A DNA stretch of 63,726 nt from the NCBI RefSeq assembly GCF_004010195.1, contig NC_057719.1, positions 17,780,165-17,843,890 of the forward strand, given 5' to 3'. The position numbers were made by a program, and so were the translations under genes. Of this stretch, positions 3,049 to 60,857 are shown in pieces. The notes below the pieces were generated by a model. That model searched no databases. It saw nothing but the letters and a program-made list of their open reading frames with translations, and was not told the origin of the DNA. How positions within the stretch are numbered: the stretch's first letter is position 1; each line of letters begins with the position of its first letter. The stretch is from Chiloscyllium plagiosum (Eukaryota).

Positions 3049-3263
3049 AGCTGAAAATGTGTTGCTTTAAAAGCGCAGTAGGTCAGGCAGCATCCAAGGA
3101 ACAGGAGAATTGACATTTCGGACATGAGCCCATCTTCAGGAAGAAGGGCTCCTGGACACACTTTCCTCATTTCTGAAGAAGGGCTTATGCCCGAAACGTC
3201 GATTCTCCTGCTCCTTGGATGCTGCCTGACCTGCGGCGCTTTTCCAGCAACACATTTTCAGCT
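3049..3263. mobile_element. Fold-back Penelope-derived mini-element, family A, with hammerhead-like core
   Basis: Inverted arms of about 90 bp (agctgaaaatgtgttgct...agcaacacattttcagct). Plus-strand core is CTGAAGA-A-GGGC-TTAT-GCCC-GAAA-CG-TC at 3173-3200. Confidence 0.8.
3173..3204 (+). ncRNA. Minimal hammerhead-ribozyme-like motif
   Basis: CUGAAGA (3173-3179), 4-bp stem II GGGC/GCCC, GAAA (3193-3196), palindromic ACGU, then C. Stem I is weak in this copy and activity is untested. Confidence 0.5.
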
Positions 3264-3819
3264 CAGTCTCCAGTCATGTCTGATAACCGTTATGAAGCTC
3301 CTTGAGGTGGGATATGAGTGCAACTTGTTTAAATTGGAATTGTGTTTTTATATCGGCGTTTACACTGCCCATACACAGAGTGCTTGCACGTTGTAACTCC
3401 TTTCATCGGAAACGAAGCAGTTCTGATGAAGCTGGTTACCTTGGTATTGCTCGTCAATTTTAAACTATTGCTGTGCCCAGATCTCCGCATTGCAAGACAA
3501 AACATTTTCACCTCTATGTTATGCTTTTGTTTGTTAGTTCTGTGTTAATCCAAACTATGTGCCACATAGATCTTAGTTGGGCTGTACAATGTAATGTTCT
3601 GATGTTAGGATGGCAGAAATGTTGTATGAACTGTGTTCACTGCAGCTACTGCATGCAGTTTTCAAACCTCACTCTCAAAGCAGACACTTGCAACACATGC
3701 CCTCCCGGGGCGATTCTGATTTTAAACGACAGGGTGCGATCACACCAGATTGTCCATCTGTTGCACACCCACTGATCTGATTTACAGTCAAAGGCCCAAA
3801 TCAAAATTGCTCCCATCTT

Positions 3820-5354
3820 TTTGCATCAGTATTTACTGTGAAAAAGGATATGGAAGATATAGAAAATAGCAAAATAGATGGTGACACCTTGCAAAATGTC
3901 TATATTACAGAGGAGGACTTATACACTTAATGGTAAGGTCCAAGAGACATTGGAGTGCAGGTTCATAGCTCCTTGAAATTGGAGTCGCAGGTAGATAGGA
4001 TAGTGAAGAAGGCGTTTGGAATGCTTTCCTTTATCAGTCAGAGTATTGAGTACAGGAGTTGGGAGGTCATGTTGTGGCAGTACAGTCATTGGTTCGGCCA
4101 CTGTTGGAACGCATAAAGGTGAATAAATCCCCAGGACCCAATCAGTTGTACCCTAGAACTCTGTGGGAAGCTGGAGAAGTGATTGCTGGGCCTCTTGCTG
4201 AGATATTTGTATCATCGATAGTCACAGGTGAGGTGCCAGAAGACTGGAGGTTGGCAAACGTGCCACTCTTTAAGAAGGGTAGTAAGGACAAGCCAGGGAA
4301 CTATAGACCAGTNNNNNNNNNNNNNNNNNNNNNNNNNNNNNNNNNNNNNNNNNNNNNNNNNNNNNNNNNNNNNNNNNNNNNNNNNNNNNNNNNNNNNNNN
4401 NNNNNNNNNNNNNNNNNNNNNNNNNNNNNNNNNNNNNNNNNNNNNNNNNNNNNNNNNNNNNNNNNNNNNNNNNNNNNNNNNNNNNNNNNNNNNNNNNNNN
4501 NNNNNNNNNNNNNNNNNNNNNNNNNNNNNNNNNNNNNNNNNNNNNNNNNNNNNNNNNNNNNNNNNNNNNNNNNNNNNNNNNNNNNNNNNNNNGGTTACCT
4601 CAGATTACAACAGGATCTTGATCAGATGGGCCAATGGGCTGAGAAATGGCAGATGGAGTTTAATTCAGATAAATGCGAGGTGCTGCATTTTGGGAAAGCA
4701 AATCTTAGCAGGACTTATACACTTAATGGTAAGGTCCTAGGGAGTGTTGCTGAACAAAGAGACAATGGAGTTCAGGTTCATAGCTCCTTGAAAGTGGAGT
4801 CGCAGGTAGATAGGATAGTGAAGAAGGTGTTTGGAATGCTTTCCTTTATCAGTCAGAGTATTGAGTACAGGAGTTGGGAGGTCATGTTGTGGCTGTACAG
4901 TCATTGGTTCGACCACTGTTGGAATATTGTGTGCAATTCTGGTTTCCTTCTTATCAGAAAGATGTTGTGAAACTTGAAAGGGTTCAGAAAAGATTTACAA
5001 GGATATTGCCAGGGTTGGAGGATTTGAGCAATTGGGACAGGCAGAACAGGCTGGGGCTGTTTTCCCTGGAGCTTCGGAGGCTGAGGGGTGACCTTATAGG
5101 GGCATGGATAGGGTAAATAGACAAAATCTTTTCCCTGGGGTGGGGGAAGTCCAGAACTGGAAGGCATAGGTTTATTGTGAGAGGGGAATTACAACATTTA
5201 AAAGCCGTTTGGATGGGTATATGAATAGGAAGGGTTTGGAAGGATATGGGCCGGGTGCTGGCAGGTGGGACTGGATTGTGTTGGAATATCTGGTTGGCAT
5301 GGACGGGTTGGACCGAAGGGTCTGTTTCCATGCTGTACATCTCTATGACTCTAT
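3820..5354 (+). mobile_element. HER1/CR1 LINE, 5'-truncated, spanning the assembly gap
   Basis: ORF 4059-4970 has KSPGP...YPRTL, PEDWRLANV.PLFKKG...PGNYRP and WQMEFN..KCEVLHFG. Downstream are LEYCVQFW and a 3' tail ggaccgaagggtctgtttccatgctgtacatctctatgactctat. Confidence 0.95.
4313..4592. other. Assembly gap (280 N)
   Basis: Run of N inside the CR1 RT region. Confidence 1.
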
Positions 5355-5590
5355 CTGCAGTAACCCCAGCCTTTTCATTTCATCTCCTCATGGAGAAGTT
5401 AAACCATATTTAAGAATCCATTTCACACCCGGAGTCTTTTCTCCCTTCTTCAATGACGACTAATGTTTGCAGCTGACTTCCTGCTAACTAGCTACGATGA
5501 CTTTTCTTTCTTCTTGTGTCTGGGTGTGGGGTAGTTGGAGCAGCAATAAGCAGGGGGGAGAGCAATAAGACCTCAATTTAATGAAAAAAA

Positions 5591-5830
5591 ATACCAAAAG
5601 AACTTCGGAGGCTGGCAATCAGAAACAAAGACAGAAATAACTGGAAAAGCTTAGCAGGTCCAGCAGCATCTCTGGAGAGAATTCAGAGTTAATGTTTCAT
5701 GTCCAGTGACCCTCCTTCAGAATTGATGGTAGCTAGGAGGGAGTAAGGAATAAACGATAGGTGGAGATAGAGCCCAAAGAGAGAGAAGAAGAGTTGGACA
5801 CACAAAGGAGTGTTTAATAGTCAGCCTGGG
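5591..5830 (-). mobile_element. Penelope-derived terminal-repeat fragment (third subfamily) with degenerate hammerhead core
   Basis: Shares ctggaaaagc...agcaggtc..gcagcatc with family A. The minus strand reads CTGAAGG-AGGGTCACTGGACAT-GAAA-CA-TT (5720 to 5691). Confidence 0.65.
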
Positions 5831-6549
5831 AGAATGAATGCAATTTAAACATCCATTTAAAACACCTCTGAGATTCAGGTCAGCTAAACCTTCTACATTA
5901 TTTCTGCCATGCTGGCTCAAAGTAGCCAGAGTCCTGAAGACAGTGCAGGTTAGAACCTGGTCCACATCACTTCTCCTTATGTGATAAATATTAATATTTA
6001 ATTATTAATTGTGTAATGAAGGAAGTTTAAAAAACATATTCTGCAGCAATATGGCTTAAAAGAAAATGTTTTTGTTCTTCATTATAAAACAAAGTGACCA
6101 TATAGGGGAGGAAAGCAACTCTTTCATAGCTGTTTAGAGGTAGAATTCATTTTGTACATAGTACAATAGATATAACTGCTTATTTTTGTGTAATTTCAAA
6201 CCAGGAAAGTGCGATTAGATTCAAATAACCTGTATTTCTGGTTTGCTGCCTTTTCCAGTGAACATATTTGTGGTAGGGTTATTTATTTTGCTTATTTCAT
6301 AATTTCTTTTAAACTCTGTTATCAATGGATTGGATAATCTGGCGAGATCATCAACACCATGAAATGTTGCTCTGGGTCCACTTGCTCGTGAACATTCAAA
6401 AGATTTATGTGAACCTCTCTCTGCTGTCTCAACAGAGGGATCCCCTGTTGTGGATTACTGTTCTTTCTTGACTAAATGAGTGGAATCAGAAAAATCATGT
6501 GAAAGTTTTGAGGACTTCCATGCCAATTTGCCAGATTTTTACTGTAGTT

Positions 6550-6647
6550 GGCAAATGGGATTGGATTAATTTAGGATATCTTGTCGGCATGGACGAGTTG
6601 GATTGAAGGGTCTGTTTATGTGCTGTATGTCTCTATGATTGTGACTC
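6550..6647 (+). mobile_element. Short HER1/CR1 3' tail
   Basis: Aligns to 5260-5354 (ggcatggacgagttggattgaagggtctgttt...ctctatga). Confidence 0.85.
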
Positions 6648-7729
6648 CTGGCAGATAACACTGATGTATAGCCTGCTTCTATGGTTTGAATTTTTTTGCT
6701 TTAAGACAGCATGGAAGTGTAAATGAACATGCTCCACTGGGTGTCTACACTGTACATCTTGGTAAATTGAGGTAAAAAGGGATACTCAGAAGTAAAGATA
6801 TTTATGTTGGTAGTCAGCTATTTAACCTTTCAAAATTATTACTTTTTTTATTTATTGAATAATTTTTGTTAAATTATTTGTTCCAAAGTAATACATTTGT
6901 ATTTATATTTCACAATAATAATGAAAGACCAGAATTAAAATTTCAGAAGTGTGGCATCAAGAAAGAAATCTCCATAAATATAATAAGATTGCATAATATG
7001 GAGAAAGGATTTTATAAATTACAGCAAAATAACAGCACAAGTATGTGTTGTGGGATTAACAAGACTGAATAACCAGCATTGACCTTAACAAGGGAATGAC
7101 ATGCTGGAGGGCGAGAGAAAGGCCGACCAGTACTGCCCCATTACAATCGCCGGAAAAGGTTCAGCTCATGGGCACTGTAAGAAGAAGGGAAAAAGCTGGC
7201 ATTTCTCATTACTTATTATAAATCCGGATATTTATGTGGCAGGGTATTGGTGGTTTTGGCAAAAAGTTTGGGTGTTTTGGAAGTGAGAATTCCTTGCGAT
7301 TGTCCAAAGTCAACAGGCTGTGTGTGTTACTTTAAAGCAGGATACTTTGGCCCATGTTCTGCTTTTGCTAGCAGACAGGTGATTGGTACAGCTATGTGCT
7401 GAAATGCTAATACTAGTATGAGCAAGAGCAAGGAGAGAAATGAGTGCTTACTGTCTCTGGCCACTGTTGTACTGACTAAGAAAACATTTGCTATATAAGG
7501 AAGTTGTTTGGCAAGTGGTATTGGTTCCGGTGTAAACTCCCTTGTTGACGGTGACTGTCGTAGTCCCACTTTCATATTCTTTCATTGTTTCTTTTTTGAA
7601 TTTATTTAATTCTGTTTCTCTCCTTAGATTTTAAAAGTCTCATTTTTGTTTTCAACTCCTTTTGTCGTGGCATGGTGACGTTCTGAGTTTCTCCATCTCT
7701 GGCCTGTTCAGTGTCTCCTGTTACAGTTG

Positions 7730-7985
7730 CTTCACTGTTGGCAGCTGTGCCTTCAATCACCTAAACCCAAAGCTCTATACCTCCCACCTCCCAACTATTT
7801 GTAATCACATTTCTTCATTTAGATAGTCTTAAATCCCTACTTTTTTGACCAACTGCTAGTCTCCTTTTGTAACATCTCCTTATGTAACAGCTCACTATCC
7901 AAGTTTTGTCTGATAAAACACATGGAAAGTAACTAGCAGCTATTCACTGCAAAAGATGGTGCATAAAAGCACTCCATTTCTGTTG
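7730..7985 (+). mobile_element. L2-type LINE 3' fragment (old)
   Basis: gtgccttcaatcacctaaacccaaagctct...ctactttttgaccaa...catctccttatg...ttttgtctgataa matches the other L2 tails in the window. Confidence 0.55.
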
Positions 7986-8133
7986 ATTTGGGTTTAATAA
8001 GTAGCCAAGTGTGATGAAGTCTGTCCAATCTTTACAGGACAGCAGTTTTGTGTATCTCCTACCTCAGGAATAGCATCTAAGTCAAATTTCTGTCTTAGAG
8101 CCAAGCCTTTTTTTTTGTTATTATTGGTTTGCA

Positions 8134-8480
8134 GTCATGATTTGGAGATGCCGGTGTTGGACTGGGGTGTACAAAGTTAAAAATCAGGCACAAGTGAGGA
8201 CTGCAGATGCTGGAAACCAGAGTTTAGATCAGAGTGGTGCTGGAAAAGCACAGGAGGTCAGGCAGCATCTGAGGAGCAGGAAAATCGACGTTTCGGGCAA
8301 AGCCCTTCATCAGGAAGTTAAAAATCATACAACACCAAGTTATAGTCCAATAGGTTTAATTAGACGCAGTAGCTTTTAGAGCGCTGCTCCCAACCACCTG
8401 ATGAAGGAGCAGTGTTCCTAAAGCTAGTGCTTCCAGTTAAACCTGTTGGACTCTAACCTGGTGTTGTGTGATTTTTACCT
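8134..8480. mobile_element. Fold-back Penelope-derived mini-element, family B, with 10-bp TSD
   Basis: Flanked by ttggtttgca at 8124-8133 and 8481-8490. Inverted arms run aaaaatcatacaacacc.../...ggtgttgtgtgattttt, with core CTGATGA at 8398-8404. Homologous to 59513-59713. Confidence 0.85.
8187..8314 (-). mobile_element. Family A Penelope-derived single arm nested in the family B element, 13-bp TSD
   Basis: TSD aagttaaaaatca at 8174-8186 and 8315-8327. The minus strand begins C-CTGATGA-A-GGGC-TTT-GCCC-GAAA-CG-TC. Confidence 0.9.
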
Positions 8481-9087
8481 TTGGTTTGCAATAACTGTTA
8501 TGTCCAGTTGCTGAACATCAATGTGAGACACCCTGGGATTGAAGCCCATTGTTATCCAGACACTTTCCTTCTGATTTTCTTTTCGCACTTAACGTGTTTG
8601 TTTTAAGTTCTGAGTTAAAGGAAAGAATAAGAATGTGCCTTTCTTTATTGTATATGCTGATGTCCCAGTAATATGTAAAATCAAAACGGAACTAGTTGTT
8701 ACAAGATAGCGGTGAGAGTGGTGAGTTTCTGTGAAGGCGCCTCATGGGCTTATGAACATTCACATTCCAGCTGTTGCCAGCAATCTCCCCAAATCATTTC
8801 AACTGTCCAGGAGGTTAGAATGCAGGGAAAACAAAACTTGGGATGTAATTGTGAGTGGGTTGGTGGATGTCCCTCCGGGAGATACAGGATACCAAAAATA
8901 TTCAGTGCATTTGTTCAGAGATTGTTTTGCATTCTGTGGTTACTCCGGGGAAGTTCTATTTATGTAACACATTTGGTTTCCTTCATTTGTAATTTTCTTT
9001 GAACGTTTAAGCTCAAATTGTGCGCATTAGCCGGACATTTGCCCAATTCTAAATCATTTCCTTCCCAATGGAGACTCAGTCATTGAC

Positions 9088-16307: not shown

Positions 16308-16606
16308 TTAGATTAGATTACTTACAGTGTGGAAACAGGCCCTTCGACCCAACAAGTCCACGCTGACCCGCCGAAGCGCAACCCACGCATACCCATTCCC
16401 CTACGTTTACCCCTTCACCTAACACTACGGGCAATTTAGCATGGCCAATTCACCTAACCTGCACATTTTTGGACTGTGGGAGGAAACCCACCCAGACACG
16501 GGGAGAATGTGCAAACTCCACACAGACAGTCGCATGAGGCGGGAATTGACCCGGGTCTCTGGCGCTGTGAGGCAGCAGTGCTAACCACAGTGCCACTGTG
16601 CCACCC
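16308..16606 (-). mobile_element. HE1 SINE (V-SINE), full length
   Basis: The minus strand has the A-box tggcactgtggttagcactgctgcctcacag, a B-box, the V-domain gtgtggagtttgcacattctcccc, a HER1-like tail and (aatct)n. Confidence 0.95.
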
Positions 16607-16616
16607 ACTTAAATAT

Positions 16617-16930
16617 TGATTAGATTCCCTACAGTATGGAAACAGGCCCTTCGGCCCAACAAGCCCACACCAACCCTTCGAAGAGTAACCCACCCAGACC
16701 CATTTCCCTCTGACCAATGCATCTAACACTATGGGCAATTTAGCATGGCCAATCTACCTAACCTGCACATCTTTGGACTGTGGGGGGAAACCAGAACACT
16801 CAGAGGAAACCCACGCAGACATGGGGAGAATATGCAAATTCCGTGCAGACAGTTGCCTGAGGTTGGAATCGAACGCGGGTCCCTGGTGCTGTGAGGCTGC
16901 AGTGCTAACCACTGAGCCACCGTGCCGCCC
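16617..16930 (-). mobile_element. HE1 SINE (V-SINE), full length, second subfamily
   Basis: Head gggcggcacggtggctcagtggttagc, B-box gttcgattcc, tail ctgtagggaatctaatca. Confidence 0.95.
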
Positions 16931-17027
16931 AATGTTCTAATCTGCTGTATAATTGTTCCATATCTTGAGAGTTTGAAATCTTGACAACTGTTCAGAATTG
17001 TGAAGAGTAGAATAAACAGTGAGAAAC

Positions 17028-30198: not shown

Positions 30199-31339
30199 AC
30201 TATGCAAATCTCACAAATTATCACTCCTGGTTGTAATAACTATCTTAAATGCCTTAAAATACGTCGTCACATAACCGTCTGTGCTTTTACATTTCGTGTG
30301 CTTAAGAACTCTTTTCTGACGAAGTACAGATTCTGACTGAAAGCTCAAGACTTGTTCAGTTCAGTTAAACTGACTGTGCGTTTTTGTGTGTGTGTAACTG
30401 AATATGCATTAAACAGGGCTAGTGCTGTGGAATGTTATTAGGTTAGAGCCTGTTCAGCTTCCTTTAAGACAGAGATTTTGACAGTGGAGCAGAGACCTTG
30501 CCCAGTTAATCAAAACCACCATGTAAATAATTTAAGGGAATAATGGATGCATATGTGAACTGTCTTGCTGCATTGAGTTAACTTGAATGATGGAGAAATG
30601 AGACACAAGGTTGAATATGTCAGTCCTTCACTGTGTCCTCTATTTGCTAAGACCCAATGTAGAAAGTCCATTATGGATATTTAATCAGACAAAAGAAATG
30701 TTGAATTTCTAGATTTTGATTTGCTCCACTCGAATTTTTATTTCAAATCCCTTGCTTAAGGATTTATTTCAATAAATCATGATCCACTTGTCTGCGTATA
30801 AATTTGTTGAGATCAGAATAGAAGGGTAAAAGACTGAAGGGTTAGGTGGGTAACTATTATTGTAACTGGAATTATTTGGTTGATTTTTCGATGAAAAATG
30901 AGTGGCCTAGTAATAGAGAGAACAATAGTACCAACAAGGATGAAACATTTAGTTTATTGAGCCTTACAAATGAAGGCATTTGATAGACTTCTCTGAGATG
31001 ATCATGAGTGTTTAGGCACTTGTTCGAAAAAAAGAAAGTCTGTAATGAAGAACACACATCTCTGGCTCTTTGAATCTAAAATGCCCTCAAAATTGTACTG
31101 AAGTAATTTGAAGGATGTATGGCTAGAATGAAACACCCCTCTTGTTTCAGATTACGGTGTACCCACAGATTATTTGACGTTGCAAGTGGAGACAACTTTT
31201 TCTCTTATCTCAAGAGGAACCAGATCATAAGAACAGAATTAGGCCCTGTGATTTTCCTCCATCATTTACTTTGTAATGAATGGTCTTTTCTTCATCTCCA
31301 TTTACATGCTTATGCTCCATCATCATTTTTATCTCTCTC

Positions 31340-34528: not shown

Positions 34529-34764
34529 TTGCATTTGTATGGCACCTTAGCAATGTTGCAAGGTTCTTCAGAAGTCTGATTATTGAATATAATTTGATAC
34601 TAACCCACATCTGGATTTGTAGCGGCACGGTGGCACAGTGGTTAGCACTGTTGCCTCACAGCCCCAGAGACCCGGGTTCAATTTGCATTTGTATGGCACC
34701 TTAGCAATGTTGCAAGGTTCTTCAGAAGTCTGATTATTGAATATAATTTGATACTAACCCACAT
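34529..34764. repeat. Exact 82-bp direct repeat (34529-34610 and 34683-34764)
   Basis: Compared base by base and found identical. Confidence 0.95.
34621..34682 (+). mobile_element. HE1 SINE 5' head only (A-box to B-box)
   Basis: gcggcacggtggcacagtggttagcactgttgcctcacagccccagagacccgggttcaat. Confidence 0.9.
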
Positions 34765-38860: not shown

Positions 38861-40039
38861 GGTATATATGTTTTAACTGGATATGAAAGGAAAATGGAAA
38901 AAGGTAGAAAAAGAGGTGGTTTGACGGATAGAGCAGGAATCCTCAGGAATATGTCAAACCAGCCTTGGTTATCCTAAGGTAGTGTTGGAATGACAACATA
39001 TCTCTGATGTTGAGGCATTTTTATTTTTCGAACAGAATTGATGAAATGTTGGGAATTAATTTGATATTTCAAATATCACAAAAGAGGAAAACATCTGGAT
39101 CTTTAGAGCCACTTCTTTAAAATTTTGTGGGTGATCTTCCAGGGAACAATCTAAGCTATTTATAAAAATACAGTTCATTGGATTTTTTTTTAACGAATTT
39201 GTAAGGAATGATTCATCTTTAGGCGCTCATAGCTTCACGCAGTGAAGGGAACACTTCTTGTTGCAAAAATAAAAGGAAAAGTATGCTGCATGCAGATGAG
39301 AGATTTCTCAGCCAAATGTACATTTGAGTTGTCGTACAAATGTTTAACTGTTTGACAACTTTTAAGTGACTAGTAATAACTATGAAAAATCGGTCACCCC
39401 CACACCCCAAAAAACCCATCTTCGTCTGTGTTAATGTTAAGTGCCAGTGTCCATCGTCTCTCCAAACCCGCCACCCCCCCCCCCATATGCTACTATTCTG
39501 AAACTCTTTCCATGAAGAAGAGATGAGGGGGGTGGAAATTGTTCGATTATTATTGCAATGAATGCAACGTCAGTAAGACGAGGTGTGAAATTAGAGCCTG
39601 CCAACAGCAAGTGGCAGATTTAAACTAATGAACTGCGGGCTAAATAACAGAGCTATCTCACAGAATTGTCAGGTCAATTTAACACAGCTTGAGTCCCAAC
39701 CTCAGTCACACAGTACATGTTAACTCAGCCCTGGCCGCTGTCAAGCAACACAATAAAATGGATATCATTTAAAGATAATTCAATCTACAGTTTTTTTTTC
39801 TCTTGCTCCCTGGCAAGCTGAGACTGTCTCTGTTCTGATGGGGTTGGCTGATATGGAGGGAGCAACAGTGGTGGGGTGGGAGGGGGAGCTATTTTCTCTT
39901 TAAAGCAGCCAGTGCAGAGGGCACAAAGGATAATACTAACACACCTTTGGGCAGATTTGTACCTTCACATTATCCATCTGAACTGTAAGTCTACAAATAT
40001 CAGTCACTGCCTGCCTGGGCAAATTCATTGAATGAGTCT

Positions 40040-40189
40040 AGATTAGAGTGGTGTTGGAAAAGCACAGCAGGTCAGGCAGCATTCGAGAAGCAGGAAAATC
40101 GTCGTTTCTGGCTTTTGCCCGAAACGTCGATTTTCCTGTTTCTCGGATGCTGCCCGACCTGGTGTGCTTTTCCAGCACCACTCTAATCT
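40040..40189. mobile_element. Family A fold-back mini-element with collapsed centre
   Basis: Inverted arms of about 70 bp (agattagagtggtgttggaaaagcac.../...gtgcttttccagcaccactctaatct) meeting at gtttctggcttttgcccgaaac. Confidence 0.9.
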
Positions 40190-40289
40190 TGATGTAATCT
40201 CCAGCATCTCCCGTACACACTTCTGCCACATTCACTGAATGGCTTGTTACTTGGTTTAAAGTCAAATGCCCCCTTCAAGCTAAGGCTAT

Positions 40290-41374: not shown

Positions 41375-42004
41375 TAGAGTCATAGCATTAGAGGTGTACA
41401 GCATGGAAACATACCATACCGACCAGCTATCCCAACTCAACCTAGTCCCACCTGCCAGCACCCGGCCCATATCCCTCCAAACCCTTCCTATTCATATACC
41501 CATCCCAAAGCCTTTTAAATGTTGCAATTGTACCAGCTTCCATCACTTCCTCTGATAGCTCATTCCATACACATACCACCCTCTGTGTGAAAAAGTTGCC
41601 CCCTAGGTCTCTTTTATATCTTTCCCCTCTCACCCTAAATGTATGCCCTTTAGTTCTGGACTCTCTGACCCCAGGGAAAAGACTTTGTCTATTTATCCTA
41701 TCCATGCCCCTCATGATTTTGTAAACCTCTATAAGGTCACCCCTCAACCTCTGACTCTCCAGGGAAAACAGCCCAGCCTGTTCAGCCTCTCCCTGTAGCT
41801 CAAATCCTCCAACCCTGGCAACATCCTTGTAAGTCTTTCCTGAACCCTTTCAAATTTCACAACATCTTTCCGATATGAAGGAGACCAGAATTGCACGCAA
41901 TATTCCAACAGTGGCCTCACCAATGTCCTGTACAGACGCAACAAGACCTCCGAGCTCCTGTACTCAGTACTCTGACCAATAAAAGCAAGCATACCAAATG
42001 CCTT
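41375..42004 (-). mobile_element. HER1/CR1 LINE 3' fragment (relatively young)
   Basis: ORFs 41744-41992 (LEYCVQFWSPSYRKD) and 41442-41747 (RGDLIEVYKIMRG...FFTQRVV..WNEL). Same subfamily as 3820-5354. Confidence 0.95.
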
Positions 42005-44045: not shown

Positions 44046-44346
44046 GTGGGCAGCACGGTGGCACAATGGTTAACACTGCTGCCTAACACCGCTAGTGACG
44101 TGAGTTCAATTCCTGCCTCAGGCAATTGATTGTGTGGAGTTTGCACATTCTCCCCGTGTCTGCGTGGGTTTCCTCCGGGTGCTCCGGTTTCCTCCCACAG
44201 TCACAAAGATGTGCAGGTCAGGTGAATTGGCCATGCTAAATTGCTTGTAGTGTTAGGTGAAGGGGTAAATGTAGGTGGGTTGCGTTTTGGTGGGTCGGTG
44301 TGGACTTGTTGGGCCGAAGGGCCTGTTTCCACACTGTAAGTAATCT
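44046..44346 (+). mobile_element. HE1 SINE, full length, 6-bp TSD
   Basis: A-box, B-box, V-domain and tail ctgtaagtaatct. TSD aatacc at 44040-44045 and 44347-44352. Confidence 0.95.
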
Positions 44347-44644
44347 AATACCAACCGAGCCAATTTCTCTCCAGCTGTAGGACACCATCTCCATTTTAAG
44401 CTGTTCAGTAATGTCCTTGGGGATCCATAGCAAAAGAAAATCAGAGCAGGAAAGTGTAGTTCTGGTTAAGTTGGCTTGAAATTATACTGAGTTGGTCAGG
44501 GAAGTATGTTAGTATTAAATCAGAATGTGATGATTTGTCGCCCTGGATGGACTTTCTGCTCTGCTGGAGATAGGTATGAATACAGGTGGCATGGAAAGTG
44601 GGGTCACCCATGAGTGTGGACACCTTTCTTCCAGAGAAGAAACA

Positions 44645-46330: not shown

Positions 46331-47322
46331 TTATTTTGATTAATTTATTTTCAACCTCCTGAACCTTCAACAACCCCAACCCTACAAGTTGCTAGCTACC
46401 TTAAAGCTGCCTTAAGTTAGTGTGATATAGACTCATATATTTGGGAAGTCTGGTGGGGTTTTACACCTTCTGTTTGAGGAAATAAGTTCTTCAGAAAATG
46501 TTGGACAGGCAGGATCTCTGAAAGTTTGCTACCTGCTGTTCCCAGTATTATTTTCAGGCAATAGCAAAAGCAATGTATTTGGAGAATGAAAATCTGAAAC
46601 AAAAATCTAAAACACTGGAAATAGTCAGCAGGTATGGGAGCATCTGTCGAAAGAAGTTAACATTGCAGGTCAACAAGCTTGCATGAGATAGTTTGCTTCC
46701 AGTTGATTCCACTATCTTCGCTGGTTATCAAAGTAAAAAGAATTGGCCTGTACAGTAATGGGATTGTTTGGTCATTTTTATTTTGAAAGCAGACATCACC
46801 TCAGAGCTTGTTTGTAATCTGGTGAAACCTTCTGAGTGCCTCAGGAGGCTTCAACCTTTAACCACTGGGATTGCATGACATTCATGTTAAAAACACTTAG
46901 TCCTTGTGATCACCCAGCTTGGTTTCATGCACCTGAAGAGATGGGAGAGGAGTTTTCATTTTACTTGTTTTTCCTTTGTCGGCCCTTTGTGTGTCGTTTA
47001 TAAATCTCCCAGGAAATTAAAGGATGGGATTGGGGAAAGCTATCGAGGGATGAATTTCATATTTGTGCAATGGGGCCAGCTTGCTGGGCTGACTGATCCT
47101 TCTCTACTTGTAAATTTTATTTCATACTATGGTACTTGGTGTTTTCCAAACTCGCACCTTAGCAATGAGTACAGTGTGTGTGGTACAGCAGAGAGACTTT
47201 AATGATAACTTGTAAAGATGTCTCAAAATGTTCACACAAACTAAACAGGCTGGACGAGGATTCTGAACTGAAAATGTTTGAAGGTGGGATCCTCAAAGTC
47301 CAACCTTTAGCACAGTGCTAAT

Positions 47323-47744: not shown

Positions 47745-48798
47745 GAGTCAGAGAATGATGTACAACACGGAAACAGACCCTTCGGTCCAACTCATCCATG
47801 CGGTTAGATAACCTAAACTAATCTAGACCCATTTGCCAGCATTTGGCCCATATCCCTCTCAACCCTTCCTATTCATATACCCATCCAGATGCCTTTTAAA
47901 TGTTGCAATTGTACCAGCCTCCACCATTACTTCTGGCAGCTCGTTCCATACATGCACCATCCTCTGCGTGAAAAAGTTGCCCCTCTGATCCCTTTTAAAT
48001 CTTTCCCCTCTCACCTTAAGCTTATGCTTTCTAGTTTTGGACTCCCTTACCCTGGAAAGATGGTCTTGACGATTCTCAGTATCTGTGACCTTCATGATTT
48101 TATAAATCTTGATAAGCCTCAGCCTCTGATGCTCCAGGGGAAAAAAATGCCCCAGCATATTCAACCTCTTCCTAAAGGTCAAACCCTCCAATCCTGGCAA
48201 CATGCTTGTAAATCTTTTCTGAATCCTTTCAGGTTTAACAACATATTTTCTATAGCATGGAGACCAGAATTGAATGCAATCTTCTAAAGGTAGTCTAACC
48301 AATGTCCTGTACAGCCACAAAATGACTTCTATATTCAGTGCACTTACCAATGGAAAGCAAGTGTGCCAAATGCCTTCTTCATCAACCTGTCTACACGCAG
48401 CTCCATTTTCAAAGGACTATCCACCTGCACCTTCTAGGTCCCTTTGTTGCCTCCCCCCCCAGTGTCCGATCATTAAGTGTATAAGTCTTGCGCTGATTTG
48501 CCTTACCAGAATGCACCACCTCACATCCATCTAAACTCCATCTGCCACTCTTTGGTCCATTGGCCTATATGATCAAGAGCCCATTGCCCTCTGAGATAAC
48601 CTTCACTGTCCACCACACCACCAAATTTTGGTGTCATCTGCAAACTTACTAAACAAACCTTCTATATTCACATCCAAGGAATTGACATAAATGGTGAAAA
48701 GCAGTGGACCCAGCACTGATTGTTGTGGCACACCACTGATCACAGGCCTCCAGTCTGAAAAATAACCCTGCACAACCACCCTCTGTCTCCTACCTTCA
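47745..48798 (-). mobile_element. HER1/CR1 LINE fragment, RT to 3' end
   Basis: ORF 47859-48350 (RKYVVKPERIQKRFT...FFTQRMVHVWNELP). tggtgtcatctgcaaacttact reads SKFADDTK on the minus strand, the RT catalytic motif. Confidence 0.95.
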
Positions 48799-49600: not shown

Positions 49601-50186
49601 CCATTACTGAAGTCTAGCCAACTAACACTGACATTTAAATGCTAAGTATGTTCCTGTCCACAGCAGAATCTCTCATTCATCCTTTCATTCCTCCACACTG
49701 ATTTGTTTTGGTACTGTACTCCCCTGGCTGTCAAGCTGTCCTGCACCTTCAGTAAGTTGGAGCCACGCTGTATCCTAACTTGCACCAAGTCCTGCTCTTC
49801 CATCACATTTGTGCTTGACAGCTCTCACTTCAGGGTCACCTTTTATGGATCAGTTTTAAAAATTCTCATCCCGTATTTCAGATCTCTCCATGACTATATT
49901 TTGAACCTCTTTCAGCTCGAGAACATTTTGGGATTTCTGCACATTTCTAACTGCGGTCTTTCATTCCCCCTCCCCCCAATCCCCACCAACACGCGCACAC
50001 TTTTAATGAAAAGCCAACATCGACAAAGGAACTTCAGAACATGGGATGCATCAAGTGTCATTCCATACTGGACAGTTGAAGTCCACATCAGGGTGTAGTG
50101 ACCATTGCTGAAGTCTAGCCAACTAACACTGATATTTAAATGCTAAGTATGTTCCTGTCCACAGCAGAATCTCTCATTCATCCTTT
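49601..50186. repeat. 85-bp direct repeat (49601-49685 and 50102-50186; 2 mismatches)
   Basis: Compared base by base: 83/85 identical, with a 416-bp spacer. Confidence 0.95.
49662..49965 (+). mobile_element. Old L2 ORF2 3' fragment
   Basis: tcctaacttgcaccaagtcc...catcac...ttttaaaaattctcatcc...tctccatg. Confidence 0.6.
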
Positions 50187-50897
50187 GTTTCCCCCTGCTG
50201 CCATGTCTCTGTACCCAAACAGCAGATAGCTTGATAGTTCTGATCCCAGTTCATGTGTGAAAAATGTCCACTTGCTGCATCTGCCATTCAGATATGGGAA
50301 TCCTTGCTCGTGTAACCGCCACCTGTCCACGGAACGTGGCCTTCAGAAGGATGGGAAAAGACTTGTCATAGTAGTTTGGTCAACACACATGGTGGCTGTT
50401 TTGAATGGGGATGCTCAGAATTACTTCAGTTTTCAGTTAGTTTTTGCATGTGTATTTTTGGTGGCATGTTCCTCAGAGTTCTCTGAAACATCATTATTAC
50501 TTCTGATTGATATTGGTTAGATGGAGGAGACGGTGGTGGAAGATGTGAATAAGCTGATGGAATTCAATCCAAAGGCAGAATTTGGTGTGTAAACACACAT
50601 TTTACACATGTGAGTCAATTTGAGTAATAATGTTACTGATACAAGGAAAATGGAAGAAAAATTAGAGACTTGAGACACTTTATGCAATTAAATGAGTACA
50701 CAATTGACTGCTGTAGAATTAAATGGGAGGTACTGTCCTGGAATAGCAATTTCATTACAATTGTGCCCATACCACGCGCAATGCTCCAATTACTAAAGAA
50801 TTGTGAAATGGAAACAAAAGGTGCTAAACTGAGGCAGTGGATTCTGTATAATAGAGAGGGGAGAATTAGCTGTAATTTTATGTTTAAGTTGTGTTAT

Positions 50898-51580: not shown

Positions 51581-53499
51581 TCCATAGGAGGAGGTAAACC
51601 TCATCATTGCCTTTTTTGGGCAGGGTATTTTTCATTCTTGATGCCCTTTCCATGTCCAAGGTGCGCACATTGACTTAAGTTATTCTCGATTATCTGCGCA
51701 TGTTCATCAAGAATTAGGAGGCTTGGTGATCTGAATTTGATTTTGGAATCCCAGTAAATGGGTTCTTGGGTGCATATATGCTGTCAGTTGTGATTATTTG
51801 AAATTTGGCATTCTTGGATTTGTCCTGATGAGTGCAAATCGAAAAACTTGCACAACATTTGCTGTGGTGTTCAAGTTGTATATGAGAGAATGACTGACTG
51901 TTGTCAATTTGACTTTAGAATTGTTTTTATTGATCAGTAATGGTGCCCCAACACCTGGTACACCTTTGCTACATGGAGTATGAACAGAGATTGTGATACT
52001 GTTTGATACAGGAGGGCTTCAACAAGCCAGCAAGCTTCCAACCTTACCTGATGCATGTGTGTGCACATGGAGGTACAATTTTCAGCAAATACCCCTAGAT
52101 AATGTTCATGTGTAGCAAGCCTAGCCCTTTATCCCATCCCTACCCACCAGAAATGGACAGGCAAATTACAGCACCCGTGATGTGAGCTAAAATCAAAAAA
52201 AGAATTAAATAGCCTTGATTAAATCTCTCCTCACCCTAGCATTTACTGAATTACGATCGGAAGAAACCTCTGTAGCGTGTATCCAATAGTACAGACCAGC
52301 AAGTTAAAATAACCTGTTTCTGTGCTTTAAATGCTGTACAGTCCAGAGATACACTTCACTGGATTGGCAAATGCTAGGTGAAGGAGGTGATTGGCATTTC
52401 AGCTGTGTTGGGATGATATAAATTTCTCTATAGTGTTACAAGGTAGGGGATGGTTTGCAATGAAAAGATTGGAGTTGCTTAAGAATGCGGTTTACCACTT
52501 GAGGGCAGTTGGGGATGGATAACGAATGCTGTCTCTGCTAGAGATGCTTATGTTCTATGAAAGATTAAAATAAAATAATGTCAGAGACGGTATCCCTGTA
52601 CTTTTGCTGAAGACGCAATGGCCATTGTAGAGGTCTGCTGGGGCCTGCCTTAGAATACTGTCCAGAGTTGGTAAGCTGTGCAGTATCTATTTACTGATTT
52701 TTCAAGAACTTCAAAGGCACAGCTGATATTACAGTAGCGATCACATGGAACTATTCAGAAATCTCTGTCAATTTAAATTCCCACCCTCCCCTTTAAATAG
52801 AGAAAGGTAAACCCCATTCAATTGCTGTGTGTTGTAATTGCAATAATTTAATTTAGCTATTTAACCTGTAATTCGGCAATATTTATTAAAGCGCTGTTCA
52901 CAGAATGAGGCCATTAAGAGCAAATGATGAATACATTTAAATTAAAATTAACAGTTCTAAGAGCTAGTTGACCTCCATTTTGTAATGGTTTTATTAGACT
53001 GGTCACACTAATTATAGCCAATGATTCACTCGAAAATGAAAACATTTTGCAGTGCAATTTTTCTGTGTTTATTTGAGAGCATTCTCCACTGAAATGCAAA
53101 GAGAAGGTCTTTCTATGTTTAAAACAAAATTAAATTTTGCTTCTATTCGTTGGTTACACAGATTGCTGTCAGTGTTCTGTTTGTTTTCTGCATATATTCC
53201 AGGGATGTATGTGTCACTGAATAGCATTAGTATAATTATTCGTGTCACAAATGAGACTTAATACTTCTTTCTTTGTGAGAAAAATTGTTTACATTGTGTT
53301 CTTAAATTACACAATGACAGTTTTACCCCATGTTGTTGATTTCTTTTGGTGGGTGTGGGATGTGGGGTGTAGTTAAAGGATTTTGGGTTTTAAAATCTGA
53401 TAGGTCTCTCAAGTACGTATCAGTCTACTCACTACCCCAAGAATAAGTTCAGTGAGGTATAAACTACCCCTTTGACAGAATATAGTGTGGGGAGAAGTG

Positions 53500-53685: not shown

Positions 53686-53786
53686 GAAATTAGATCCCAA
53701 AAAGAAAGAAAAGGGAGTATTCTGAAAATAATAGTGTTTCCTGTTGATGTTTTGTATTTAATGTGGTTGTTTGTGTTTTGTTTCTT

Positions 53787-54330
53787 AGGAATCCTACAAC
53801 ACAGAAAAAAAAGTCCATTTGGCCCATTGAGCCTCTGCTGGTCCTTTGAAAGAGCAATCTAATTAATCCTACTCCTTGTGGGTGGCACAGTAGCTCATTG
53901 GTTAGCACTGCTGCCTCACAGCATCAGGGACCCGGATTTGATTCCATCCTCAGGCGACTGCCTGTGTGGAGTTTGCACATTCTCCCCTTGTCTGTGGGGG
54001 CCTCCTTTGGGTGTTCTGGTTTCTTCCCACAGTCTAAAGATGTGTAGGTGAGTTGGATTGGACCATATTAAATTGCCCATAGTGTCTAGTAATGTGTAGG
54101 TTAGGTGGATTAGCCATGGGGAAATGCAGGGATAAGGTATTTGGGGTGAGTCATGGTGGGATGCTCTTCTAAGAGTAGGTGTGGACTTGTTGGGCCAAAT
54201 GGCTTGTTTCCAAACTGTAGGGATTCTTGTTCCTGTCCAATAAGCCAACACATTTTATTCTTTTCAAACATCGTCCAGTTCCCTTTCTGAAGTTACTGCA
54301 TTTCTAGGCAATGTATTGCATATCATATTT
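53787..54330 (-). mobile_element. CR1 3' tail remnant split by HE1
   Basis: taggaatcctacaacacagaaaaaaagtccatttggcccat; it resumes after the SINE with tccagttccctttctgaag. Confidence 0.55.
53880..54225 (+). mobile_element. HE1 SINE, full length (older)
   Basis: ggtggcacagtagctcattggttagcactgctgcctcacagc, V-domain and tail ctgtagggatt. Possible TSD cttgt. Confidence 0.9.
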
Positions 54331-57200: not shown

Positions 57201-59512
57201 TGATTAGTAAGTTAAAAAAATGTTATAGACACTGATCTCAATATTCATTCCTGCAAGGTGCTTGCAAAAATACATGAACCTTTCCATGTTGGTGAAATGA
57301 AAAGCATGAAAGGCCGTTTATTTTTGATTGTTTTGTAAGTTGTAGCTCTTTGGGTGTTAGATGTTTGTTTAGTCAACATGGGAAGGCCTTGCTTAGTGTT
57401 GTCCCAAGCAGCATCATTTTGCATTAACATTTCTGTCCAATTAATATTCTGCATTCCTGTTGTATTGTTGCTGTTACATGCTAATGTTATTTCTGCGTCT
57501 GAACTGAAGTGTCTAGACAGTCCTGTGTAAACCTGTGTGAGAGTTGAAGGTGGGTGGAAAACAGGGAGGGTGTATCAGGTCTTAGAAGGACTGGAAGCAG
57601 ATTTTTAAATGTGCTGAGAATAGTTTTGTCTTGGTTTCCTGTTGTCCTACTAAATAAAGACAACAGGTTACATACTCACTGCCTTCTACTGAGGTAATAT
57701 GGGCTGAGGTTAGAAACAGGAAAGAAGAGGTCATCCCGTTGGGAGTTTTCTATAGGCTGCTGAATAGTTCTAGAGATGTAGAGGAAAGGATAGAAAAGAT
57801 AATTCTGGATAGGAGCAAGAGTGACAGGGTACTTGTTATGGGGGACTTTAACTTTCCAAATATTGACTGGGATTACTATAGTTCAAATACTTTAAATGGG
57901 TCAGTGTTTGTCCAGTGTGTGCAGGAGGGTTTACTGACATAGCATGTAGCCAGGCCAACAAGGGGCGAGGCCACATTAGCCAGGTGTTAGATTTGGAGGT
58001 AGGTGAGCACTTTGGTGATAGTGACCACAATTTGGTTATGTTTATTTTAGCGATGGAAGGGATAGGTGGATACCACAGGCCAAGAGTTGTAGCTAGGGGA
58101 AAGGCAATTACGATGCGCTTAGGCAAGATTTAGGATGCATAGGATGGGGAAGGAAGCTGCAGGGGATGAGCACAATTGAAATGTGGACCTTATTCAAGGA
58201 ACATCTACTGCGGTTCCTTGATAAGTATGTACTGATCAGGTAGGGAGGAAGTTGTCGAACGAGGGAGCCATGGTTTAATAAGGAAGTTGAATCTCTTGTC
58301 AAGAGGAAGAAGGCTTATGTTAGGATGAGATGTGAACGCTCAGTTAGGGTGCTTGAGAGTTACAGGTTAGCCAGGAAAAATCTAAAGGAAGAGTTAACAA
58401 CCAGGAGGGGACATGAGAAGTCGTTGGCTTTCTTTTCTTCCTGATATACCTGTAGAATAACAAGAGTAAGATTAGGTCCAGTCAAGGATAGTAGTGGGAA
58501 GTTGTGTGTGGAGTCTGAGGAGATTGGGGAAGCGCCAAATGAATATTTTTCGTCAGTACTCACACTAGAAAAAGACAATGCTGTCGAAGAGAATACTGAG
58601 GTACAGGCTACTAGACTAGATGGGATTGAGGTTCACAAGGAGGAGTCGTTAGCAATTCTAGAAAGTGTAAAAATAGATAAGTCCCCTGATGGGATTTATC
58701 CTAGGATTGTCAGGGAAGCCAGGGAGGACATTGCCAAGCCTTTGGCTTTGATCTTTATGTTGACATTGTTTACAGGAATAGTGCCAGAAGACTGAAAGAC
58801 AGCAATTGTTGTTCCCTTGCTCAAGAAGGGGAGTCGAGACAACCCTGGTAATTATAGACCAGTGAGCCTTACTTCGGTTGTGGGTAAAGTGTTGGAAAAG
58901 GTGATAAGAGATAGGATTTATAATCATCTAGAAAGGAATAGGCTGATTAGGGATAGTCAACATGGTTTTGTGAAGGGTAGGTTGTGCCTCAGAAACCTTT
59001 TTGAGTTCTTTGAGAAGGTGACCAAATAGGTGGATGATGGTGAAGCGGTTGATGTGTATATGGATTTCAGCAAGGTGTTCAATAAGGTTCCCCATGAAAG
59101 GCTATTGCACAAAATACGGAGGCATGGGATTTAGGGTGCTTTAGTAGTTTGGATCAGAAATTGGCTAGCTGAAATAAGACAAAGGGTGGTGGTTGATGGG
59201 AAATGTTCATCCTGGAGTTCAATTACTAGTGGTGCACCACAAGGGTCTGTTTTGAGTCCACTGTTGTTTGTCATTTTTATGAACGACCTGGATGAGAGCT
59301 TAGAAGGATGGGTTAGTAAATTTGCGGATGACATTAAGATCAGTAGAATGGTGAATAGTGACGATGGATGTGTAGGTTACAGCGAGACATGGATAAGCTG
59401 CAGAGCTGGGCTGAGAGGTGGCTAATGGAGTTTAATTCAGAAAAGCGTGAGGTGATTCACTTTGGAAGGAGCAAGAGGAATGCAGAGTACTGTATTACTG
59501 ATAAGATTCTTG

Positions 59513-59713
59513 ACTTGGAGGTGCCAGTGTTGGACTGGGATGGAAAAAGGTAAAAATCACACAACACCAGGTTACTGTCCAACCGGTTTCTTTGGAAGCA
59601 CTAGCTTTCAGAGCACTGCTCCTTCATCAGGTGGTTGTCAACCTGATGATGTAGCGGTGCTCTGAAAGCTACTGCTTCCAAATAAACCTGTTTGACTGTA
59701 ACCTGGTGTTGTG
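59513..59713. mobile_element. Family B fold-back Penelope-derived element inserted in CR1
   Basis: TSD taagattcttg (59502-59512) and taagattgttg (59714-59724). Arms of about 74 bp surround an 8-nt loop, with CTGATGA cores on both strands. Confidence 0.9.
59596..59636 (-). ncRNA. Minimal hammerhead-ribozyme-like motif (best-preserved copy)
   Basis: The minus strand reads aaccac-CUGAUGA-A-GGAGC-AGU-GCUCU-GAAA-GC-UA-gugcuu: stem I 5/6 bp, stem II 5 bp, palindromic AGCU as stem III. Activity untested. Confidence 0.55.
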
Positions 59714-60857
59714 TAAGATTGTTGGTAGTGTAGATGAGCAGAAGGGTCTTGGTGTCCATGTACACAGATTCCTAAAAGTTGCCACCCAGGTTGATAGGGT
59801 TGTTAAGAAAGCGTATGGTGTGTTAGCTTTTATTAGTAGAGGGATCGAGTTTCAGAACCATGAGGTCATGCTGCAGCTGGAACAAACTCTGGTGCGGCCG
59901 CAGTTCTAATCACCGCATTACAGGAAGGATGTGGAAGCTTTGGAAAAGATTCAGAGGAGATTTACTGGGATGTTGCCTGGTCTGGAGGGAAGGTCTTATG
60001 AGGAAAGGCTGAGGGACTTGAGGCTGTTTTTATTAGAGAGAAGAAGGCTGAGAGGTGACTTAATTGAGACATATAGGATAATCAGAGGGTTGGATTGGGA
60101 GAACAGTGAGAGCGTTTTTCCTCGGATGGTGATGGCAAGCACAAGAGGACATAGCTTTAAATTAAGGTGTGGTAGATATTGGACAGATGTCAGAGGTGGT
60201 TTCTTTACTCAGGAGCGTGGAACACACTGCCTGCAACAGTAGTAGACTTGTCAACTTTAACGGCATTTAAATGGTCATTGGATAGACATATGGACGAGAA
60301 TGGAATCCTGTAGGTTAGATTGGTTTCAGATCGGTTTCATAGGTCAGCACAACATCAAGGGCCAAAGGGCCTGTACTGTGTTGTAATGTTCTATGTTCTA
60401 CTGTATAAATGGATAGAGTATGTGACCCCCCCCAACTTGTACGCCAACAATGCAAAGAACCCCTTACAACATCTAACCAAAATGTCAACCTAACCTCCTA
60501 TAAAATCCAAATCCATCACTGTTCATTCATTTACCTAATTTCAAGGTTTCACAGCTTGGTGACTACTTAAACTTGGTTGTTGTAGCTTTTTCACGGAAAG
60601 ACAAATTTATTGTTGACGTTCTATACGATTTCCTAACTTTATATTGTCAGTGTACTTATTTTTATGGGAATGTGTACCCCACACCCTCCTCCATGAATGT
60701 AACCCCTAGTTATAACATTGTGTGTATGGGAAATTATGTTTCATTTAATGTTGAGTTTTCCAGGAACTAATTTTGAATGCTCAGCAAGGACTTACTCTGT
60801 TTGCACATGAGTTGCATTCCTTTGTTTAAATTTATCTTCTCTGGAGTTGTGGAGGAA

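Follow-up and report, generated by a model that had tools for sequence, protein, structure and literature searches.

Short hammerhead-bearing repeats in Chiloscyllium plagiosum as probable truncated ends of Penelope-like elements

Repeat families and insertion layout

The window, that is the whole stretch analysed here (63,726 nucleotides of Chiloscyllium plagiosum, NC_057719.1, positions 17,780,165 to 17,843,890), contains short repeats of families A to D that carry minimal hammerhead motifs (Table 1). Target-site duplications bracket all five A/B inserts (10, 13, 11, 12 and 16 bp), and a repeat of 8 bp flanks the family C copy. The window holds four fold-backs, in which arms of 70-130 nt are inverted head to head. 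Three of the four have a tail of ~40 nt on a single arm, and both arms of the 3049 unit are short. Each of the nine A/B arms includes the cut site, the starts lying between about -20 and +10 of C3 and not at one shared base; since all nine span the cut site, the templates had probably not been cleaved. The inserts end away from the cleavage site.

Table 1. Features of the hammerhead-bearing repeats and neighbouring sequence (window positions).
Feature	Position	Strand	Remarks
16-bp exact direct repeat, left copy	2338..2353	.	likely target-site duplication around PLE ORF end, spacer and A fold-back
C-terminal codons of PLE GIY-YIG endonuclease (~2388-2447), then C-rich 3'-UTR-like sequence	2370..2540	+	
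~500 nt enclosed by the 16-bp repeat; may be host DNA that was captured	2541..3048	.	no second copy in window
Family A inverted arm	3049..3142	-	decayed hammerhead (C3 at 3139) with AUGU in stem III and no stem I left
Second short scrap, 5' half of family A hammerhead, at fold-back junction	3140..3152	+	sequence
Family A direct arm	3153..3261	+	hammerhead 3173-3200: intact boxes, 4-bp stem II, ACGU stem III, weak stem I
16-bp direct repeat, right copy	3262..3277		
Family C copy	5582..5840	-	decayed hammerhead 5720-5691; flanked by an 8-bp repeat (5574, 5841)
Family B fold-back	8134..8480	.	10-bp target-site duplication 8124-8133 and 8481-8490
Family B minus arm	8134-8186 and 8328-8390	-	carries tail; truncated in stem II
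Exact 13-bp duplication bracketing A stub	8174-8186 and 8315-8327		
Family A stub inside B arm	8187..8314	-	hammerhead 8313-8287, boxes intact; 5' end 1-3 nt before C3
Family B plus arm	8390-8480	+	hammerhead 8398-8426, G12 lost (UAA, not GAA)
Family B poly(A) signal position, with the poly(A) sites that serve other copies	8436..8456	+	RNA reads
Family D hammerhead	30311..30351	+	motif at 30316: boxes intact, stem I of 4 bp, stem II with a bulge, stem III AGCU
Family A fold-back	40035..40229	.	junction within stem II; tail on plus arm only; 12-bp duplication, 1 mismatch
C-like 3' piece, strongly decayed	46578..46690	-	core not recognisable
Solitary core-box match	51820..51855	+	both boxes, 4/5 stem I pairs; hammerhead identity unconfirmed
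Family B fold-back in CR1-type LINE	59513..59713	.	11-bp duplication, 1 mismatch
Its minus-arm hammerhead	59630-59602	-	intact boxes; this arm has tail
Its plus-arm hammerhead	59643-59671	+	decayed: U.C mismatch in stem II, broken stem I

A paralogous LINE piece (4653-4847) is without the B insert of 59513-59713. Behind 8186, where the A stub interrupts the B arm, the loose ends of the family run on as B sequence, and a contig of organism B covers 7804-8212. The loose ends of family A reveal two 3' ends ~40 nt apart (8192 and 8234), and the bases upstream of the 3173 copy agree with the family A loose-end consensus. In the 40035-40229 fold-back neither arm has CUGANGA, the junction being inside stem II. 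Families C and A have downstream sequence in common, and the C copy likely includes ~120 nt of upstream element sequence. Family D is represented by one copy in the window, around which no convincing target-site duplication was found. The preliminary description of this DNA lacked the decayed A arm (3139, minus), the fourth family (30316, plus), the 40035-40229 fold-back and the 8328-8390 B arm (minus), as well as the insertion of A into B, the target-site duplications and the PLE ORF end.

The copy number of these families is high: from a single DNA run, 130,899 contigs aligned to a 1.1-kb stretch, almost all of them on its element part. The numbers seem far above the 4,000-9,000 of coelacanth and Xenopus given in the survey of minimal hammerheads (min-HHR) in metazoan PLEs (Cervera and De la Pena, 2014, PMC4209133), where the motifs occur mostly as solo copies in truncated PLEs, with opposite-strand pairs 100-700 bp apart. 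The words 'shark' and 'Callorhinchus' are absent from the supplement file of that survey that was searched, and a literature search, mainly of open-access papers, found nothing on these families in sharks.

Hammerhead motifs

A descriptor composed after the motifs had been seen (both core boxes, stem II of at least 4 bp, a paired 4-nt stem III) matches the window 4 times at 0 deviations, 7 times at ≤1 and 16 times at ≤2, while 100 dinucleotide shuffles gave means of 0, 0.2 and 3.95 and maxima of 0, 2 and 10. The motifs of families A, B and D are therefore genuine and beyond chance. That they are accidental matches in ordinary repeats has next to no probability and is refuted for these families by the exact and near-exact matches and by the family majority, which restores the core (G12 in 71-78% of the depth at 8419). 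What can be said for chance concerns looser patterns. The core boxes alone match the window 10 times, against 2.64 expected by shuffling, and a core-only pattern run on prokaryote genomes as a control gave 120 matches, 6 of them also with a 4-bp stem II and palindrome; the pattern was too loose, and these count as chance matches. Chance may hold for the motif at 51825, which had been described as a degenerate hammerhead: two of three stem II positions fail, stem III is non-palindromic and position 17 is G. Its identity as a hammerhead is unconfirmed because boxes alone arise 2.6 times per window by chance.

Of the six A/B arms that extend as far as the core boxes (CUGANGA, GAAA, UH), five have them intact; both boxes, stem II and palindrome survive together in only three of all nine arms. 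After the unpaired base before stem II, the 10.1-11.1 pair is G-C in all three family A arms; in family B the copy at 8398 has G-C and the 59513 insert has G.U on each arm. Positions 15.2-16.2 are palindromic but form no true helix III, with ACGU in two of three A motifs and AGCU in all three B motifs and in D; at 3139 and 5720 the palindrome has decayed. Where a canonical stem I would have 6 bp, these motifs have 2-5 scattered pairs: 3 bp and 2 bp flanking a C.C mismatch in family B, 2 bp, U.U and 1 bp in the family A consensus, and 4 bp in family D. Pairs were tabulated by script, as a MAFFT alignment of the eight cores was out of register. Rfam returned no hammerhead family in the window at E≤10, only miRNA-type hairpin matches, under gathering scores, at two fold-backs and one AT-rich stretch.

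The min-HHRs of PMC4209133 share with these motifs the CUGANGA core, the extra base before stem II, G10.1-C11.1, the palindromic 15.2-16.2 and, possibly, the short helix I (3-5 bp); unlike them, the window motifs have short stems II of 4-5 bp. The early reading as minimal hammerheads of the Penelope type, with a palindrome in stem III, is supported. So are the formula of family A (3173, plus; 8313, minus) and the motif at 5720 (minus) as a decayed third family. The formula of family B fits one of its three motifs, that at 59630 (minus), since the copy at 8398 (plus) has UAA and that at 59643 (plus) has its stem II mismatch and broken stem I. The proposed covariation in stem III comes down to a single between-family difference, ACGU in A and probably C versus AGCU in B and D, with none within a family. 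Nor is this switch new, as both forms are in the 2014 min-HHR alignment: Fig. S3 of PMC4209133 has ACGU, AGCU, AUAU and AAUU rows, with AGCU (the G-C form) in turtle and S. mansoni. By eye, the downstream bases of the turtle row resemble family B.

Between the two arms of fold-backs, 25 of 211 downstream sites differ versus 2 of 32 core sites, which gives no significant sign that the core was conserved once inserted (p=0.27). Against the family majority, 3 of 81 core positions are changed versus 53 of 514 (p=0.036), so that the core looks somewhat conserved, a comparison confounded by subfamily differences and base composition.

Links to PLE ORFs

The PLE ORF in the window consists of its final ~20 codons. 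By tblastn, 2388-2447 matches the C-terminus of a PLE protein (P0052) at 13/25 positions. A profile of 120 PLE C-termini, made after that match had been seen, places it at E=4.3e-6 with the runner-up at 0.89; the C-terminal profile alone matched, a profile of the whole PLE alignment having no match in the window. One 16-bp duplication encloses this ORF end and the family A fold-back, and on the strength of this single repeat the ORF end may be family A's own; against this, the two pieces are separated by 500 nt of DNA without explanation. Among 20000 random window positions, 127 have a 16-mer repeat within 2 kb upstream. Pieces of the intervening 2541..3048 had no match in PDB, Atlas or Pfam.

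Pfam searches of 122 of the 217 ORFs of at least 65 aa brought up fragments of LINE endonuclease and RT, besides two weak matches under the cut-off, and neither a PLE nor a host gene; protein searches with the translated C and A stubs gave no match. Two viral-contig scans and a first metagenome scan for the motif found none. In a second metagenome scan, one contig (L125) carries a B-type hammerhead, 32/35 identical, 750 nt downstream of an ORF with a CX3CxxC linker and GIY-YIG domain on the same strand. The match to family B spans the 35-nt hammerhead only, and the contig comes from another organism; it has G-C at 10.1-11.1, and its linker is of the CX2-5CxxC type, as in Neptune/Nematis. A second contig (L122) joins a B-type hammerhead to an inverted RT fragment and shares sequence with the first, so the two were counted as one element. 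The other four of six loci (L121, L123, L124 and L126) were dropped as chance matches lacking stem II. Toxin families that NCBIfam listed for the RT fragment of L122, at E 0.03-0.11, fell well short of the cut-off and were set aside as noise.

Origin of the repeats

We consider the repeats to be dead, 5'-truncated 3' ends (pseudo-LTR, pLTR, plus tail) of several endonuclease-bearing (EN+) PLE families, with a probability of roughly 0.8. The duplications, one-sided tails and two 3' ends agree with published EN+ PLE insertion (Arkhipova et al., 2013, PMC3846280; Craig et al., 2021, PMC8557442) and with the two internal RT starts downstream of the hammerhead in PAc, a Poseidon element of Anolis with AT-rich targets (Frangieh et al., 2024, PMC11167929). 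EN+ PLE units have head-to-head inverted pLTRs like those seen here, a 30-40-bp tail at one end and 8-10-bp duplications; their palindromic junctions have been read as self-priming, and captured host DNA lies between pLTRs. In contrast to them, nearly all window units are cut down to arms of 70-130 nt that end at the hammerhead. In PAc, uncleaved RNA is the main substrate and the hammerhead needs protein for activity. The PAc ORF begins at stem II, whereas the AUG within the A and B core meets a stop after 9-18 codons (read by eye).

We infer both the inactivity of the repeats and the following steps of copying. The PLE protein would nick AT-rich DNA, and reverse transcription of uncleaved RNA would begin at either of two sites ~70-130 nt downstream of the hammerhead. 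At the hammerhead 5' edge or the stem II hairpin the RT would usually halt, leaving a stub, or fold back on its own cDNA, leaving an inverted pair. The hammerhead would be inherited from the parent element, where, with help from the protein, it would work as a dimer joined at the palindromic stem III, while the genomic copies decay. The ACGU and AGCU palindromes would then be lineage characters of separate parent PLE families. Mobilisation by PLE machinery, as originally proposed, is supported.

The 5' ends crowd around the hammerhead in a way that random truncation does not predict, and a short dedicated template fits them equally well. A and B could be SINE-like non-autonomous families, in which the stubs are transcribed into a short RNA that starts immediately 5' of the hammerhead and the PLE protein copies this RNA again in trans. 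All nine arm starts lie within ~30 nt around C3, the loose-end consensus of family A differs from run to run in a position a few bases ahead of the core, and the arms of 59513-59713 have common changes missing from the other B insert; moreover, the PAc cis-signal requires only ORF positions +20 to +172 (PMC11167929). However, the C copy seems to reach ~120 nt and the 3173 copy ~20 nt upstream, and the PLE ORF end lies within the same insertion as A. Dedicated families are possible but unlikely, and truncated PLE ends account for the data.

The repeats had also been called retrozyme-like. They do resemble non-LTR retrozymes in being non-coding, hammerhead-bearing and PLE-related (PMC7229834; Li et al., 2026, 10.64898/2026.07.22.740005), their hammerheads are of type I, and the 2026 preprint derives retrozymes from PLE pLTRs and lists some in its sole chondrichthyan genome. 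However, retrozymes are defined by tandem hammerhead units and circular RNA (Cervera and De la Pena, 2020, PMC7229834), and the first of these does not apply in the window: no head-to-tail units, each with a hammerhead, occur there, and the inserts end away from the cut site. Stem I falls short of its canonical length, and the double-hammerhead fold lies 9-17 kcal/mol above the cofold minimum for window copies (11-17 for the best of them). As the fold-back arms are on opposite strands, a double hammerhead in cis is impossible. Self-cleavage into unit-length circular RNAs is scarcely credible, and the retrozyme-like label is not supported.

Truncated PLE ends bring little that is new, the ribozyme variant, the palindrome and the insertion layout having been published already. 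Their value is as material on the in vivo role of the PLE hammerhead, through copy number, 5' ends at the hammerhead and not at the cut site, and read-through poly(A)+ RNA.

Folding, transcripts and poly(A) sites

The fold-backs have folding energies of -112 to -159 kcal/mol, and stem II has a probability of 0.0 in the four cases computed. On this prediction, a long hairpin traps the hammerhead in fold-back transcripts and keeps it from folding, which accords with the sequestration suggested before. Family A RNA reads come from both strands. Among RNA changes, A>G and G>A are both raised (18 and 20 places), with no editing-specific signal. In X21, from a poly(A)-primed library, no read ends pile up at the cut site, which is a weak test, and poly(A)+ RNA runs through it.

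In family B a poly(A) signal follows 9-10 nt behind the cut site; a report of such a signal behind a PLE hammerhead was not found in the literature searched. The hexamer is mutated in two of four B arms (59630 and 8398), the family majority being of the A/U-U-A-A-A type, and 8436 reads G>A in 1885/1948 and 314/326 RNA reads. Behind 8452 there are 749 reads with a poly(A) loose end, and behind 8456 there are 624. The poly(A) site in use, 26-30 nt beyond the cut site, is supplied by family B copies elsewhere in the genome.

The repeats might instead be RNA regulators kept by the host, as fold-back dsRNA or as a cleavage switch just upstream of the B poly(A) signal. The fold-back energies, the use of poly(A) sites from B copies and the A reads from both strands would suit such a role. 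Against it, the arms have decayed ~12% from each other, the hexamer is mutated in half of the B arms, X21 (2% of the run read) has no RNA reads on the flanks of 8134-8480, and editing leaves no specific mark; we regard it as very improbable.

A more far-reaching proposal, a long shot, is that the stubs propagate themselves from an RNA starting at the hammerhead, with the stem III palindrome and stem I as a family-specific pairing code and with decay of B-ended mRNAs in trans. ACGU and AGCU would then each pair with their own kind alone, and a B-ended host mRNA could shed its tail on meeting a second B-bearing RNA and PLE protein. This would amount to a copy-number-sensing, trans-acting decay switch across the genome, with a transposon ribozyme acting on host mRNA 3' ends. 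Computed dimers gave +7.6 kcal/mol across families versus -7.7 and -10.7 kcal/mol within the same family.

Hammerhead motifs in the window

The family A motifs at 3173 (plus strand) and 8313 (minus strand) and the family B motif at 59630 (minus) are present in the sequence exactly as claimed. A minimal type I descriptor finds 4 matches in the window with no deviation allowed, 7 with one and 16 with two; 100 dinucleotide shuffles give on average 0, 0.2 and 3.95. The descriptor was drawn up after the motifs were known, but the excess is nonetheless large. The two other named family B copies are damaged: 8398 has lost core position G12, and 59643 has a stem II mismatch and no stem I. The motif at 5720 (minus) does represent a third family (C), decayed, with downstream sequence akin to family A. 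At 51825, only the two core boxes (CUGANGA and GAAA) and 4/5 stem I pairs are found; as the boxes alone occur 2.64 times per shuffled window, this motif is not counted as confirmed. Motifs at 3139 (minus) and 30316 (plus) are absent from the preliminary description, as is an entire family A fold-back (two arms head-to-head on opposite strands) at 40035-40229, which lacks CUGANGA because its junction falls in stem II. A junction inside the stem II hairpin is also seen at 8390 (fold-back or truncation). An Rfam search of the window did not detect these hammerhead motifs.

Stem II varies in sequence among families A, B and C and stays paired. The stem III sequence is ACGU for family A; families B and D share AGCU. 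The stem III switch is one between-lineage change, not co-variation within a family. The stem III palindrome is named a consensus feature in PMC4209133, and rows of its Fig. S3 read as ACGU, AGCU (turtle, S. mansoni), AUAU and AAUU, so that the ACGU and AGCU variants are already in print. Only 3/9 A/B arms have kept the palindrome together with stem II and the two boxes. Departures from the family majority are seen at 3/81 core sites and 53/514 downstream sites (p=0.036), the latter figure being inflated by subfamily differences. Between arms of the same fold-back, presumed identical at insertion, 2/32 core and 25/211 downstream sites differ (p=0.27). Given the inflated downstream figure and the result between arms, selection on these copies is not established.

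Anatomy of the inserts

The A/B set comprises five inserts with nine arms, each insert flanked by a direct repeat.

Coordinates of the inserts and of the family D motif
Feature	Position	Remarks
Family A unit	ending at 3261	16-bp flanking direct repeat
Family B fold-back	8134-8480	10-bp flanking direct repeat
Family A stub nested in family B arm	8187-8314	exact 13-bp duplication
Family D hammerhead	30311-30400	fourth family, AGCU stem III; single copy in window
Family A fold-back	40035-40229	12-bp flanking repeat, one mismatch
Family B fold-back	59513-59713	11-bp flanking repeat, one mismatch

The insert at 59513 splits a LINE RT region, and a paralogous LINE piece (4653-4847) lacks it; the RT fragments in the window are presumably CR1-type. 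Decayed LINE fragments lie at 57658-60240, the longest, with Pfam matches to AP-endonuclease and RT, and in shorter pieces at 3942-5350, 32600-32900, 41414-42004 and 47806-48550. The left junction of the A-in-B insertion also occurs on a contig of a second organism (labelled B, unrelated to the family name).

Four of the five inserts are head-to-head fold-backs, and in 3/4 of these one arm is longer by ~40 nt at the 3' end; family-wide loose ends give two 3' ends for family A, 8192 and 8234. This layout is shared with endonuclease-bearing Penelope-like elements (PLEs), described as having an inverted pseudo-LTR, an optional tail, a short duplication and a palindromic junction (PMC3846280, PMC8557442). 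The tail has been explained by RT starting at either of two internal sites, both downstream of the hammerhead (PMC11167929).

Link to Penelope-like elements

The link to Penelope termini, on which the preliminary description depended, was found twice, in a metagenome locus (L125) and at 2370-2444. A metagenome scan with the B-type pattern gave 6 loci, and in L122 and L125, which carry a PLE, the hammerhead is 32/35 identical to 59633-59599, the likeness being confined to the hammerhead, with different flanks. On L125, from a contig labelled marine, an ORF that encodes a GIY-YIG domain and a CX3CxxC linker precedes the hammerhead; longer homologues of this ORF have Pfam matches to RT and GIY-YIG, and the closest named relatives of the protein are from sea turtle and sea urchin. 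L122 has the same 3' end joined to an inverted RT fragment.

When 152 L125-type proteins were compared with the window by tblastn, one weak match (2370-2444) was obtained apart from LINE matches, which came from one chimeric query. A profile built from 120 PLE C-termini matches there with E=4.3e-6, the next best match in the window being 0.89. This PLE ORF end sits between the two copies of the 16-bp exact repeat (spanning 2338-3277) that closes the family A fold-back; a comparable repeat within 2 kb occurs at 127/20000 random positions. Most likely, 2338-3277 is one composite insertion in which a PLE ORF end, ~500 nt of so far unexplained sequence, the inverted arm and the direct arm follow one another; we infer the ORF end to be family A's own. 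Possibly the insertion captured host DNA. On its minus strand, the ~500-nt spacer has stretches that look protein-like and, near 2760, a site resembling a splice donor.

The suggestion that these elements are retrozyme-like does not hold in the window: tandem units and the canonical fold are both absent, and retrozyme membership was rejected on these grounds. Retrozymes are reported in one chondrichthyan, the sole one examined (10.64898/2026.07.22.740005). The papers searched gave no description of these families from sharks.

Folding, transcripts and insertion

By nearest-neighbour energies, which ignore tertiary contacts, the best cofold is more stable than the double hammerhead by 11-17 kcal/mol in the best window copies and by 9-13 kcal/mol in the intact L125 motif. 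These predictions fit the low or protein-assisted activity reported in PMC4209133 and PMC11167929. Being on opposite strands, the arms of a fold-back cannot form a hammerhead dimer in cis. Sequestration of the ribozyme by the fold-back, as proposed earlier, is predicted to hold, its effect being to silence the ribozyme: stem II probability is 0.0 in the four fold-back transcripts computed and 0.82 in the nested A stub, which lacks an antisense partner.

Four sequencing runs were aligned to positions 7800-8900. One DNA run placed 130,899 contigs there, with a summed depth (not a copy number) of 4e4 to 1e7 in element bins (8133-8502) versus ~10 on the flanks. In the family majority the B core is restored, position 8419 being G in 71-78% of depth and 8415 being C; bases 5' of the family A core, taken from loose ends, form only a weak stem I. 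In a poly(A)-primed RNA run, only 31/6349 aligned reads are at least 99% alike and the flanks are without reads, so the reads derive from copies other than 8134-8480. In these other family B copies, poly(A) begins behind 8452 in 749 reads and behind 8456 in 624, 11-15 nt past the family B hexamer and 26-30 nt past the predicted cut (8426/8427), and poly(A)+ reads are biased 4- to 7-fold toward the hammerhead-sense strand. The hexamer and a GU-rich tract lie directly 3' of the hammerhead. No A-rich stretch occurs there in the family sequence, and the GU-rich tract follows; genuine polyadenylation is thus judged more probable than internal priming. The literature search gave no account of a poly(A) signal 3' of a PLE hammerhead; AAUAAA does stand downstream of it in several Fig. 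S3 rows of PMC4209133. RNA depth is 1948 at 8436 and still 1746 at 8419, and no accumulation of read ends is listed for this run on 7800-8900, which suggests that much of this RNA is uncleaved, in a library that would miss short cleaved products.

The cut site is included in 9/9 arms, which start from ~20 nt upstream to 10 nt downstream of core position C3. As a cut in sense RNA would block reverse transcriptase, the insertion templates were likely uncleaved, unless antisense, a case discussed in PMC3846280; an uncleaved template likewise applies to PAc, a Poseidon PLE of Anolis (PMC11167929). Copying of such a template would halt at the hammerhead front, which may act as a roadblock, or fold back at stem II. 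In a SINE-like alternative, the same front edge may instead be the start of a short RNA.

Other repeats

Copies of a second SINE-like repeat family lie at 16311-16931, 25982-26280, 34622-34683, 44046-44349 and 53878-54227. Local direct duplications of 94 nt (49601-49694 / 50102-50195) and 86 nt (34525-34610 / 34679-34764) show 95-99% identity.
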